64,000 nucleotides of DNA. Source: Podarcis cretensis (lineage: Eukaryota). This document shows positions 4,791 through 57,311 of the stretch, in pieces (within the stretch, counting starts at the first letter, position 1; each line of letters begins with the position of its first letter). A program made the position numbers and the translations under genes. A model generated the notes under the pieces. It did not search any database. It was not told where the DNA came from and worked only from the letters and a program-made list of their open reading frames with translations. The stretch is from assembly GCA_951804945.1 (NCBI GenBank), contig OX638150.1, forward strand, positions 97,154,001 through 97,218,000. The letters are read 5' to 3'.

Positions 4791-5444
4791 GTGTTATCTA
4801 ATTGAGCTCAATGGGCTTTATTTCTAGGTAGGCTTGCCCAGCAAGCTTCTCTGAAAGTCTACAAAGCCGAAACATAACAGAAACATTAACATTTTGCAGT
4901 GCTCAGACCAAATAGCTCTCCCGTTTCCGTTCTGCAAACAAAATTACTCATTTTCAACTTGATTTAGGGCCATTCAGTTTAAACGCAGAGCCAGATTTTT
5001 TCTTTTCTTTGAGTACCAGTCTTGTTCTCTCTTGTTTGGCTTGGCTACATTTGGTATCGCCAACTGATGGGGAATGTGTACACGGCAGCAGGCAAGCGAC
5101 CACTGCAAGATGGACTCATGCCCAGCCTAGCTAGCAAAAGCCATCCGGCAAGCTCTGGCTTCCTTATTGGCTGGGATGATACTCAGGGAGGGCAGACTGA
5201 CAGATGGTATTTAATCTGCAGTTGTTCACCCCCTGCTCAATTTGCCCACCCCGCTGAAACCTGGAAATTCTCCACTAGCTGTTGCCCCATTTTAGAAGGT
5301 CCTTGAGAAACTAACCATTCTCTTGGTTTAGATGCACCTGGCTTCTGTAGGATATTGTTCCCACTGCTCCCACTTTCAGCATACACATGTCCTCAACACT
5401 GCAAGCGAAGCTTTGCTTGAGGATTCCTCCCAAGATAATGACAA

Positions 5445-5976
5445 TGTCAGGAACTGGCAGGACAAAGAGGAGTGGTGGGAGGCACCAGCCGGGGAACCCT
5501 CAAAGGAAACCTCACAAGAGGAAGGCTCCAAGCGGTGGGACACTGAGGAGAGGTCAGAGGGAGAAGATGGGGAGGAGGGGCTGGATGCTGAAGGGGCAAC
5601 AAGGTTTAGTGAGCAGGAAGAGCCTGTGACAGAGAGCAGTTCAGACTCCAAGGCGGAAGCAGAGGCTGCTGAAGAATATGCTGCAGCTCCCTCCCCTCCT
5701 GGTCTCCAAGAATGTGCAGAATAATGAGGAGAGCAGAACAGAGGCCAGAGGTGCACAGGCACAGTTTGAGACTGCTTGGGAAACATCTGGGAGAGGAGGA
5801 GTCTTAGAAGAGGTGAAAGGCAGGGACCTTCTGTCCTGGCCACTGCTCCATAGGGACAAGACCTACTGGGAAGTGTTGCAGAGTTGTATGCTATTTCCTT
5901 GAATTAAAGAGTTAACTTCACTGACAACAGAGCCTGCATCTTTTGTGCTGACTAGCACCTGACTCTAGCCCTGACA
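5445..5976 (+). mobile_element. Solo LTR, probably Gypsy/Ty3-type
   Basis: TGTCAGG...CCTGACA termini (7-bp inverted repeat). 5-bp TSD gacaa/ggcaa with 1 mismatch. ATTAAA poly(A) signal at 5903-5908. No internal gag/pol. Confidence 0.85.
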
Positions 5977-6725
5977 GGCAATTACACCCTGTTGTTGCTG
6001 TTAACATCTTTCGGTATTGGATGCGACTATGGGACTTGGCTGGCAGACTTTCCTAGGACTGCTCTTGTGCGGCCAGCAAGCCATGCCTGCTCCCTTCCTT
6101 GCAGTTCATTGGCTCATTCGCCAGAGAAATTCTGATGCTGGGCAAGGAAGAGGACAGTGATGAATCCAAGAAGATGCATTGCTTCCCATGACGCTGTACG
6201 TCGTTCTGAATGTCTTCCCCTCAAATAAATACTCCCTTCTTAAATGTGGAGCTGCCATTTCTGTGGCTCTCAAAGCAGGCTGTTTAGGCTCTCCAGGCAT
6301 CCACAGTGAAGGAGAGGGAGCAGGAATTTGGGTCGGAGGCTACACGATGACAGAGTGAGGTCCATGACAGGTAAAGGGGAGAATGCCTTTTTCACAGGGA
6401 GAAATACGAAGAGGGAAGATGAGGTAAGGCGGAGAGAGAAACACACACACCAGGCACGTGGGCAACTGCAGGCTGCCAGGGCCATCCACTCATGTCAATC
6501 CGAACCGCTGGTGCATGGTTTCTGGCAGCAGGAAGAACTCCCTTTGAGCCGAAGCATTTCTCATGCCATAGATGGGAGCTTTATATTCAACCCTCAAAGG
6601 CTAAATTGTCCCTGTCAGCTAGACTGCTTTTGGGTTCAGTGTAATTAGTTCTTATTTGTACTGCTGTAAAATACCAAAAGGAAAAAATAGCCCAGCCCCT
6701 TAGCAATTACTCCATAGTATATGTG

Positions 6726-7068: not shown

Positions 7069-7419
7069 TATATGTGAATGCTCAGGTGCTTTCCTGACAG
7101 ACACCACTTCAGGGTTTAGGCACTTCTCCTAAGATTTCATTGCCAGCATATTGGAAGGAGGAAGCGTTGCTCCGAGTTGCTCTTTGCTTTCTGCTTGCAG
7201 GAAACAGGGGGTTCCTTTTTGGTTAAATCTTGGGGACACATACCCAGTTTACAAGGGCATGCGTGCTGTACCAAAGCATGTATGAGCATGCAGAGTCTCT
7301 GGGTGCATGAGCGCATACTCCCTCTCCGCCTCTCCTAGCATCAAGCTACTAAGCCAAATTGTGGTAATGAAAATATGAGTTTAGAGGAGGAGCAGGCAGG
7401 GCCACAGCACAGAGGTAGC

Positions 7420-7559
7420 AAAAGGTCCCAGGTTCAACCTCTGGCTTCTTCAGGTAGTTCTGGGAGAGACCCCTGCCTGAAACTCTGCTGAGCCACTGTC
7501 AGGCTGTGTAGATGGACTAAAAGGTCTGACTCCGCATAAGGCAGCTTCTAACATTCCTA
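7420..7559 (+). mobile_element. Old tRNA-derived SINE (Squam3-like; name tentative)
   Basis: aaggtcccaggttcaacc box B, body gggagagacccctgcctgaaactctg, tail gactccgcataaggcagcttc. Homologous to 59900-60065. Minus-strand remnants at about 32815-32910, 39160-39245 and 42495-42630. Confidence 0.65.
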
Positions 7560-44110: not shown

Positions 44111-44611
44111 CAGTGGTGCCCCGCAAGACGAATGCCTCGCAAGACGGAAAACCCGCTAGACGAAAGGGTTTTCCGTTTTGGAGGTGCTTCGCAAAACGAA
44201 TTTCCACTGGGCTTGCTTTGCAAAACGAAAATGTCTTGCGAGTTCCTGCGGGTTTTTTCCCCTTTCCCCCCTTTTTCTAAGCCGCTAAGTCGCTTATCAG
44301 CTGATCCGCTAAGCCGCTAAGCCGCTTATCAGCTGATCCGCTAAGCCGCTTATCAGCTGACCCGCTAAACTGCTAAGCTGCTTATCAGCTGATCCGCTAA
44401 GCCGCTAAGCCACTTATCAGCTGATCCGCTAAGCCGCTAAGCTGCTTATCAGCTGATCCGCTAAGCCGCTAAGCTGCTTATCAGCTGATCCGCTAAGCCG
44501 CTAATACCGCTAATCCGCTAAGCTGCTAATGGGCTTGCTTCGCAAGACGAAAAAACTGCAAGACGAAGAGACTCGCGGAACGGATTCTTTTTGTCTTGCG
44601 AGGCACCACTG
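44111..44611 (+). mobile_element. MITE family B, long copy with internal minisatellite
   Basis: Same TIRs as 33308 and TA TSD. Tandem array at 44277-44530. Confidence 0.92.
44277..44530 (+). repeat. 32-bp minisatellite built from 8-bp subunits
   Basis: (ctaagccg ctaagcYg cttatcag ctgatccg) x7, one unit being 24 bp, plus trailing monomers. Confidence 0.95.
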
Positions 44612-56000: not shown

Positions 56001-56821
56001 TAGGCACAGCCTAGAAATGGATCATAGAAGAATGGTTTTAGTTTGTTTTTGGCTAGTTTAGCATATACCACTGAAAGAAATGATATGTGCTTATTTCGTT
56101 ACACTTGAACGAACTGCTGTACTGGGAAATTTTGTAATGTGAGAATTGGCATTGAAGTGCTCTGTTCTGCCATTCTGGGTGTTTGGAGATCTAATTGTGG
56201 TGTGCTCAAACTGTTAAAAAAGAGTGCTCCTAACATACCTGTGGCATCTGTGAACAATCACAAGGACATAAGAGGTGCCTTGCTATGTTCTTGAGACTGT
56301 TTATTGAGAGGCTTTGCTCTACTTGCAGCCCAGGAAGCAACCAAATTGGGGGCTGGGGGAGGAGAATGATGCCCAAGGATTTGGCAGAGAACCATTTGCC
56401 AAACAGCTTGATAAGAGGTTTTCTCTGTATGGACCTCTCATCATACACATGTGGCAATTCAATGCAGCCAATTCGTTCATTTCTTAAATTTTTATCCAGC
56501 CTTTCTACCCAGAGGACCCCAGGGCAGCAGAACTATACAATTAAAAACATTCAGTAAAAACCAGGAAAAACATTTAAAATTTAACTGCATCTAAAATATT
56601 TTGAAAGAGTTGACCATAGGCAAGAAAAGCACCTACATTACACTCCAGTGAAAACCAGATACAAAGAAGTGCCTTCCTAGATCAGAGCAAAGGTCTACTT
56701 AGTTTAGGACCCTGTTTCTCATGAGACCCCTTTGGGAAGTTCACAAATGGGGCAGTGATAGATCTTTCCCCCATGAATTTATCCAACCCCACCTTTTAAG
56801 CCATCTAAGCTAGTGACTATG

Positions 56822-57311
56822 TGTTATGTACTGAATAAGATCCAAAATGCAGTAGTCTGATTGGTCCTAGAACAATAGGATTCAGAGTGCAGCAGTCTGA
56901 TTGGTCCTAGAACAACAGGATTCAGAATGCAGCAGTCTGATTGGTCCTAGAACAATAGGATCCAGAATGCAGCAGTCTAATTGGTCCTAGAACAATAGGG
57001 TCCAGAATGCAGCAGTCTGATTGGTCCTAGAACAACAGGATTCAGAATGCAGCAGTCTAATTGGTCCGAGAAATATAGGATCCAGAATGCAGCAGTCTGA
57101 TTGGTCCACAGGAGCCACCCAATCCAAATCCAGGTGGAAGTGAATCCGCAACCTGATTGGCCTACAGGAGAATCCCAGAATTAGCCAATCATGTGGGACC
57201 CATTGTGTAAATAATGTATATAAAACAAATATTTTGGGGAAACTTCCATTCCTCACTACTATGAGCTGAATAAAGAGCATGAAATCCACACTCGATTCCG
57301 AGTATATTTCA
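56822..57311 (+). mobile_element. Solo LTR with a 40-bp tandem CCAAT array
   Basis: TG...CA termini and perfect 5-bp TSD ctatg. TATA-like tatataaa at 57217-57224 and AATAAA at 57269-57274. Confidence 0.92.
56841..57107 (+). repeat. 40-bp minisatellite, about 6.7 copies, in LTR U3
   Basis: Unit tccagaatgcagcagtctgattggtcctagaacaatagga with an exact 40-bp period. Confidence 0.97.

Follow-up and report, generated by a model that had tools for sequence, protein, structure and literature searches.

Why should a solo LTR carry a reading frame that begins at its second base and takes up two-thirds of its length? The LTR in question lies near the start of the window, by which we mean the whole stretch of 64,000 nucleotides of Podarcis cretensis DNA that was analysed (contig OX638150.1, positions 97,154,001 to 97,218,000). 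The original prediction, made from the letters of the window, was that this part of the LTR is the decayed C-terminus of an integrase or accessory protein, in which an acidic tract is followed by a basic motif resembling the nucleosome-binding core of HMGN proteins. The reading that we prefer, and that as a whole we hold tentatively, is that the stretch is a U3 region with a broken frame, which probably once encoded the final ~135 residues of a chromodomain integrase, and that its arginine-rich end was likely a tether to the nucleosome acidic patch.

The LTR and its reading frame

The element (5445..5976, + strand) belongs to an old Ty3/gypsy family of the chromovirus clade and has the features of a solo LTR: TG...CA ends, 7-bp inverted ends (5445..5451 and 5970..5976, +), a length of 532 nt, related copies elsewhere in the genome, and a 5-bp target-site duplication, gacaa on the left (5440..5444, +) and ggcaa on the right (5977..5981, +), identical at 4/5 positions, with no internal region in between. 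A search of the window with four pol proteins of young elements (tblastn, E<=1e-3) gave no match. The 5′ inverted end is both the integrase attachment site and the first codons of the LTR-coded frame, and the same start is found directly behind the polypurine tract (PPT) in sister and young elements. Because a likely, putatively functional polyadenylation signal (attaaa) is present at 5903..5908 (+), where copies L008 and L029 have AATAAA, the sense of the LTR is taken to be the + strand. A DNA search of the genome returned at least 41 matches (40 scored of 2787 candidates), which apart from the window itself were 74-85% identical, and a protein search with copy L011 returned at least 151 (150 scored of 5295 candidates). 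Mean pairwise identity within the family is 0.80 (38 copies), and target duplications agreeing at 4-5 of 5 positions accompany 42/69 family loci with both ends located. The copies form a star-like tree with terminal branches of ~0.12 and two weak subfamilies, and we therefore conclude that an old burst was followed by neutral decay. Elsewhere in the window, tandem arrays with units of 8 nt and 40 nt occupy 44245-44537 and 56794-57153.

In the window copy, the frame from 5446 translates as VRNWQDKEEWWEAPAGEP...EERSEGEDGEEG...EAEAAEE and is open up to 5721, and the frame from 5448 translates as SPRMCRIMRRAEQRPEVHRHSLRLLGKHLGEEES and ends at a stop at 5805-5807. The decayed acidic part (5446..5697, +) has 34% D+E over the first two-thirds and is cut off by a frame break at 5697..5698 (+), where this copy has a gap of 22 columns against the others; two further gaps in it, one of 12 columns after 5533 and one of 15 after 5665, keep the frame. 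Behind the break come a Ser-Pro followed by an Arg/Glu-rich segment (5703..5756, +), the basic motif, which reads RHSLRL in this copy (5757..5774, +), and the family-wide stop codon of the tail (5805..5807, +), with a stop in 32/35 and 44/51 copies. The order of SP or TP followed by an Arg-rich run recurs in the young families A and C and in sister copies. An acidic frame from the second base, a single frameshift near 5670-5700 and a coding share of about two-thirds had all been predicted, and all were found, the coding part amounting to 363/532 nt (68%). In 20,000 first-order Markov samples of matched composition, this particular frame stayed open for 127 codons in 1.0-1.7% and any of the three frames in 3.0-4.8%. 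Neither window frame matched a Pfam family at E<=10, the frame of L011 matched 0 Pfam families, and a protein search with the latter among longer proteins gave no match at E<=10. An ATG in the flanking DNA opens a 130-codon frame into the acidic part (5332-5724), which is likely a chance occurrence.

The frame can be followed across the family. We aligned 57 copies, drawn from 69 copies with both ends and the window copy through a length filter of 430-680 nt, with named duplicates and mis-called starts taken out, and counted a stop as shared when at least a quarter of the copies have it at one alignment column. In the frame that begins at LTR base 2, 65/7278 codon cells (0.9%) are stops, none of them shared before the one at 5805, which is present in 44/51 copies; in each of the other five frames, 1.7-5.0% of the codon cells are stops and 2-8 positions have a shared stop. 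A 38-copy alignment gave the same stop pattern. Between base 2 and the stop there are 411 well-occupied columns, which is divisible by 3. The acidic and basic parts belong to one frame, since two of the 57 natural copies, L011 and L019, can be read through without interruption. Net divergence between the two subfamilies, calculated without L314 and L025, is highest at third positions (0.023 vs 0.013 and 0.004; permutation p=0.026), although third positions are also more divergent within groups (p=0.035), so that part of this signal may reflect CpG placement. The frame-preserving indel bias that had been anticipated did not emerge clearly: multiples of 3 make up 53/143 private indels in U3 and 18/64 behind the stop, and 8/21 and 0/10, respectively, of the shared indels. 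This is expected if most indels arose after insertion. Finally, the peptide of 5446..5697 resembles the tails of sister LTRs L114, L117 and L125, with 0/500 shuffles reaching the score.

Integrase frames that continue into the 3′ LTR

A full-length element of the window's own family, with the integrase and chromodomain fused to the LTR frame as had been predicted, did not turn up: internal sequence beside the LTR was found at 0/144 other family loci (39 located through the DNA search and 105 through the protein search, out of thousands of candidates; the flanks of 29 copies had been checked earlier). Three PPT-junction patterns were tried and gave no junction for this family, their matches being solo copies, members of sister families and a fragment duplicated near chromosome ends (subtelomeric), and a guessed primer-site pattern for the 5′ LTR junction gave 0 matches. 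Because none of the 144 loci has internal sequence, we infer, rather than observe, fusion to pol in the family itself. Two loci, L307 and L332, share 87% identical sequence 67 nt past the LTR end, either an internal 5′ remnant or another repeat. In 17/20 loci of the set L031-L050, a fragment with a related LTR start lies in a 93-99% identical block near many contig ends; this block is a subtelomeric duplication.

In sister and young families, the claim that pol runs through the PPT into the 3′ LTR is borne out. Sister LTRs with the same VRDW..EEWW start, including L109/L117, L114, L119, L125, L140 and L145, come after an integrase, a chromodomain and a G-rich PPT in the same phase. Their 5′ parts are homologous to that of the window, at the DNA level in 4/9 sister LTRs, which beat all 100 shuffles, and as peptide in 6/9, for which 0-2 of 500 shuffles reach the score. 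At G000:C8:14.9-15.7 Mb (L118-L142), the end of one decayed sister element is repeated at intervals in ~20 copies, which probably form a tandem segmental array.

Younger families emerged when the genome was searched for Chromo domains (1051 candidates, of which 150 were scored). Their elements L101, L102 and L103 encode RT, RNase H, integrase, SH3-like and Chromo domains in uninterrupted frames that are 1544, 1333 and 1269 codons long. In L101, L103, L104 and L105 the frame reaches 310-364 nt into the 3′ LTR before it stops, or 55-75% of its length, as compared with 68% in the window. In family A, 16/27 ends are in phase and 14/27 reach 115-120 codons into the LTR. Outside these 27 ends, further loci (20 minus 9 left out of the comparison) are in phase in 11/11 cases, 8/11 with tails of 100-120 codons; L051-L053 were left out as two host-gene-like matches and one orientation slip. 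Of the 27 family-A 3′ ends (L054-L080), which are otherwise near-identical, the remaining 11 lose the phase at a G-run close to the PPT/LTR junction. This shift would remove the tail and may be an assembly error in the homopolymer or real slippage that yields tail-less integrases. Among named proteins, the one closest to a young relative comes from Podarcis muralis (93%).

The tails of these young families are under purifying selection, as had been predicted for comparisons between subfamilies. Their dN/dS, from pairs that are not independent, is 0.35-0.50 in four pairs of family A and 0.96 in a fifth, 0.19-0.36 in six pairs of family C (with dS reaching 2.6 and two of the pairs close to saturation) and 0.57 in the single pair of family B. 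All open tails have 20-34% D+E over their first two-thirds, and an Arg/Lys-rich last third is common to all families (0.30-0.38 K+R in the young tails); the tails of different families barely align. A chromodomain is found at the C-terminal end of the integrase in the young families and in the sisters with homologous 5′ LTR parts. An extra acidic block lies between chromodomain and PPT in families B and C (L081-L100), whose chromodomains presumably are without some of the aromatic-cage residues kept by family A and the sister family. On the basis of these relatives, the LTR-coded stretch is very probably the coding tail of an integrase, and we consider it equally probable that the window's own family had this tail fused to a chromodomain integrase. 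Of the two options in the original prediction, an integrase or an accessory protein, the tail is part of integrase in the young families, and for the window's family this assignment is carried over from them.

The young elements resemble vertebrate chromoviruses in their domain order (gag-PR-RT-RH-IN-Chromo) and in their 5-bp target duplication. A complement of the primer site within the LTR extends over 10 nt in L101 and L104 and 7 nt in L103 and is absent from L105; the 10-nt complement in 2/4 young elements fits the self-priming described in the accessible part of one report (PMC6317226). In family A (L101) this complement lies at LTR nt 391-400, behind the stop, and in family B at nt 275-284 (L104:2452-2475), within the coding tail, which stops at nt 310. 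If it marks the transcript start, the core promoter of family B may itself be coding. Two raw RNA runs on L101:300-1600 gave depths of ~0-6 over internal sequence and 2-40 over the LTR from reads mostly 90-95% alike, depths that carry no information on translation of the tail, and an RNA search with L101 listed no RNA holder. The family-A element of L105 sits within a tandem satellite with a unit of ~186 bp (1-1518 and 7129-7501, oriented). Three public Podarcis gene models (P0006, P0008, P0014) place an ATG at the family-A LTR start and fuse the tail with gag or with a receptor gene; they are likely annotation artefacts.

Tails of this kind appear in other reptiles. Among 157 proteins, 34 resemble retroelement chromodomain ends, and those of Rhineura floridana (XP_061449381.1), Vipera latastei (KAM3854145.1) and Crotalus adamanteus (KAK9395746.1) continue past the chromodomain with an acidic stretch, which gives way to an Arg-rich end; that of Salvator merianae (A0A8D0E9M8) has the acidic part. 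All of these are gene models in which the LTR junction was placed by a GGxV motif in the protein. Fish proteins (Hemibagrus, Prochilodus) have RGRP repeats, which we take to be AT-hook-like, at a neighbouring place. Several relatives stop or turn disordered shortly past the GGxV junction, and the LTR overlap is short in the fish relatives P0010, P0130 and P0139. On these few protein sequences, the long tail looks squamate-wide.

The basic end and the nucleosome acidic patch

Arginines 1, 2 and 5 of the motif contact the acidic patch in HMGN (RRSARLSA), Dsup (RRSSRLTS) and Dot5 (RRSARIAT), according to the accessible parts of two reports (PMC13347269, PMC12487698), and phosphorylation of the motif serine is modelled there as blocking this binding (PMC12487698). 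The RRSxRL motif proposed for the window is literally absent from it, the copy reading RHSLRL, and an HMGN-like RRSxR is found in 4/51 copies of its family. Codons 1 and 3-6 of the motif are well kept (R 46, S 43, L 48, R 44 and L 48 of 51), which is no proof of selection because shared descent explains it. The second position (codon 5760) is H in 22, C in 15, R in 7 and another residue in 7 of the 51 copies, and it is a CpG-type site, with CG in 7, TG in 17, CA in 27 and TA in 1 of 55. The original prediction traced the altered motif to CpG decay, and this codon varies as do the other CpG sites that are decaying in the LTR. An inherited His at 5760, to which the skew of CA over TG might have pointed, was rejected, the skew being inside the range of other CpG-like sites.

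In family A the tail reads RRSARLKA, matching 7/8 HMGN consensus residues, and RRSARL is kept in 12/14 full-length in-phase tails (L054-L080), across subfamilies with 15-25 non-synonymous differences in the tail. RRSxRL is absent from the translated tails of families B and C and of the sister copies, which have Arg-rich ends, and from the Rhineura, Vipera and Crotalus proteins. Behind a chromodomain, RRSxR occurs in 2/34 retroelement-like proteins, namely the Podarcis family-A protein and P0092, a chromodomain-retroelement protein that ends in RRSARLAAAH. The window's basic segment bears a marginal likeness to that of family A (4-10 of 500 shuffles reach the score), and its family has Leu at motif position 4 where HMGN, Dsup and Dot5 have Ala or Ser.

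Modelling of the peptide on H2A-H2B, which the original prediction had proposed, gives weak support. A complex fold of the last 50 residues of the family-A tail of L101 with the H2A-H2B of the same genome scored 0.42, against 0.02 for the best of 3 controls, with at least 27% of contacts in common between runs and a partner pLDDT of at least 43; this result concerns family A and not the window's family, gives no interface, lies outside the calibration because it involves a peptide, and may draw on remembered solved acidic-patch complexes. In that calibration the pass mark was reached by 51/78 solved complexes and 2/108 mismatched ones, and passes at 0.60 or under comprised only 5/78 solved complexes and all 4 passing mismatches of 180.

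A proposed second chromatin contact on the integrase

In the young relatives, a gag-pol or pol frame runs through integrase, chromodomain and PPT, enters the 3′ LTR at base 2 and ends at a stop 310-364 nt further in, and we propose the same fusion for the window's family. The chromodomain would recognise a methylated histone tail, the disordered acidic stretch would act as a long spacer, and the RRSxR-type end would make a second contact with the nucleosome, as in HMGN and Dsup. This two-point grip by chromodomain and arginine motif, with the acidic stretch in between, is a model that we advance with less than even confidence. Reverse transcription would copy U3 into the 5′ LTR, and LTR-LTR recombination would leave it in solo LTRs, where the tail would decay neutrally. 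U3 lies upstream of the transcription start in the layout of an LTR, and solo copies should therefore not express the tail.

The evidence can be read in other ways. As the main alternative, the tail might be a real integrase extension that uses its basic end for nuclear localisation or, as a helix, for general binding of DNA or RNA, its HMGN likeness being incidental. What all families have is an Arg/Lys-rich last third (0.30-0.38 K+R) and not RRSxRL, fish relatives have RGRP repeats at a neighbouring place, and the nuclear localisation signal and targeting segment of Ty1 integrase are C-terminal, according to the accessible parts of two reports (PMC7459421, bioRxiv 2019.12.18.879569). We nevertheless regard this reading as unlikely, if not markedly so, because family A matches 7/8 HMGN consensus residues and keeps them across subfamilies, because P0092 ends in the same motif, and because nuclear-signal and tether roles are compatible with one another. 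Alternatively, in line with a second idea of the original prediction, the acidic tract may be the working part, loosening the nucleosome through chaperone-like binding of H2A-H2B or H3-H4, with the basic end bending back onto it as a phospho-switch. Such a role would suit the 20-34% D+E over the first two-thirds of all open tails and the second acidic block that families B and C have from chromodomain to PPT, but neither window frame has a Pfam match at E<=10, the sequence of the tract is not kept between families, and a purine-rich U3 yields Glu easily; we judge it quite improbable.

It is also conceivable, at rather low probability, that the tail, though translated, serves for the most part as a tolerated spacer, which stays open only since a stop is hard to place in the PPT and promoter and whose conservation is that of promoter DNA. 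This would be in keeping with tails that barely align between families, with the 11/27 family-A 3′ ends that are out of phase at the G-run, and with the short overlap in the fish relatives P0010, P0130 and P0139; however, DNA-level constraint would not give a dN/dS of ~0.19 at a dS of ~1, as seen in family C, and proteins of lacertids, an amphisbaenian and vipers all have the acidic part first and the basic part behind it. Most improbable of all is that U3 in the window's own family was never coding, a purine-rich promoter having left one frame open by chance. The lack of a linked pol among 144 loci, the finding that any of three frames is open in 3-5% of samples and the want of a clear frame-keeping indel bias are all that such a reading would expect. 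Yet this open frame is where sister and young families lead one to expect it (a 1-1.7% outcome by chance), its peptide resembles sister tails that follow a chromodomain, its layout and stop position are those of family A, and subfamily differences lean to third positions.

The arrangement proposed here, in which the coding tail of a chromodomain integrase lies in U3, has partial counterparts. In plant CRM elements of group A, the accessible part of one report describes how the pol frame extends into the 3′ LTR and there codes for a targeting motif (PMC3059260). The likeness lies in a targeting motif coded in the 3′ LTR by an extended pol frame. In CRM the CR motif replaces the chromodomain, whereas the squamate tail is added behind it; the relatives described here keep a Pfam Chromo domain, live in a vertebrate (squamate) host and have an acidic-then-basic tail, and centromeric clustering is not evident from the places of the listed copies. 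Fish relatives have an LTR overlap of a few codons and RGRP repeats before the LTR, in contrast to ~100-135 codons in squamates. HMGN, Dsup and Dot5 likewise have a short RRSxR(L/I) motif in a disordered, charged protein, of which RRSARLKA in family A is the nearest counterpart; here, in contrast, the motif is LTR-encoded, sits on a retrotransposon integrase and has a putative binding role, with Leu as its fourth residue in the window's family and His as its second in the window copy. Foamy virus Gag, KSHV LANA and CMV IE1 resemble the proposed tether in that they, too, fasten a mobile genome to nucleosomes by a short arginine-anchor peptide, but these tethers are on Gag or latency proteins and not on integrase. 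The targeting segment of Ty1, a member of the Copia superfamily whose tether partner is RNA polymerase III, is to our knowledge not encoded in the LTR. A short C-terminal segment of Ty1 integrase serves as nuclear localisation signal and tether, according to the accessible parts of two reports (PMC7459421, PMC10050235), and the foamy virus Gag chromatin-binding sequence shapes integration sites, according to the accessible part of a review in which the word 'retrotransposon' has 0 occurrences (PMC9040877). In the literature that we covered, with most subscription journals and, for the first point, repeat databases outside its scope, we came across neither a vertebrate chromovirus with a long LTR-coded tail nor a retrotransposon integrase with an HMGN-like motif.

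If the tail acts as we propose, it would allow an integrase to grip the nucleosome acidic patch directly beside its chromodomain, with a grip that could be switched off by mitotic phosphorylation, as in HMGN. A broader form of the proposal, to which we give somewhat less credence, is that squamate chromoviruses use a U3 tail of 100-135 residues as a second chromatin-reading module, with an HMGN-type anchor in at least two lizard families. In the young elements, the promoter region doubles as coding DNA over 55-75% of the LTR. Integration-site choice of vertebrate Ty3/gypsy elements is largely an open matter, and the tail offers a short peptide for nucleosome assays. Solo LTRs are usually seen as regulatory remnants; if our reading is correct, hundreds to thousands of them would be fossils of the tail. 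Solo LTRs can preserve the trace of a protein domain that a family has lost, here in a family whose loci yielded no internal sequence.
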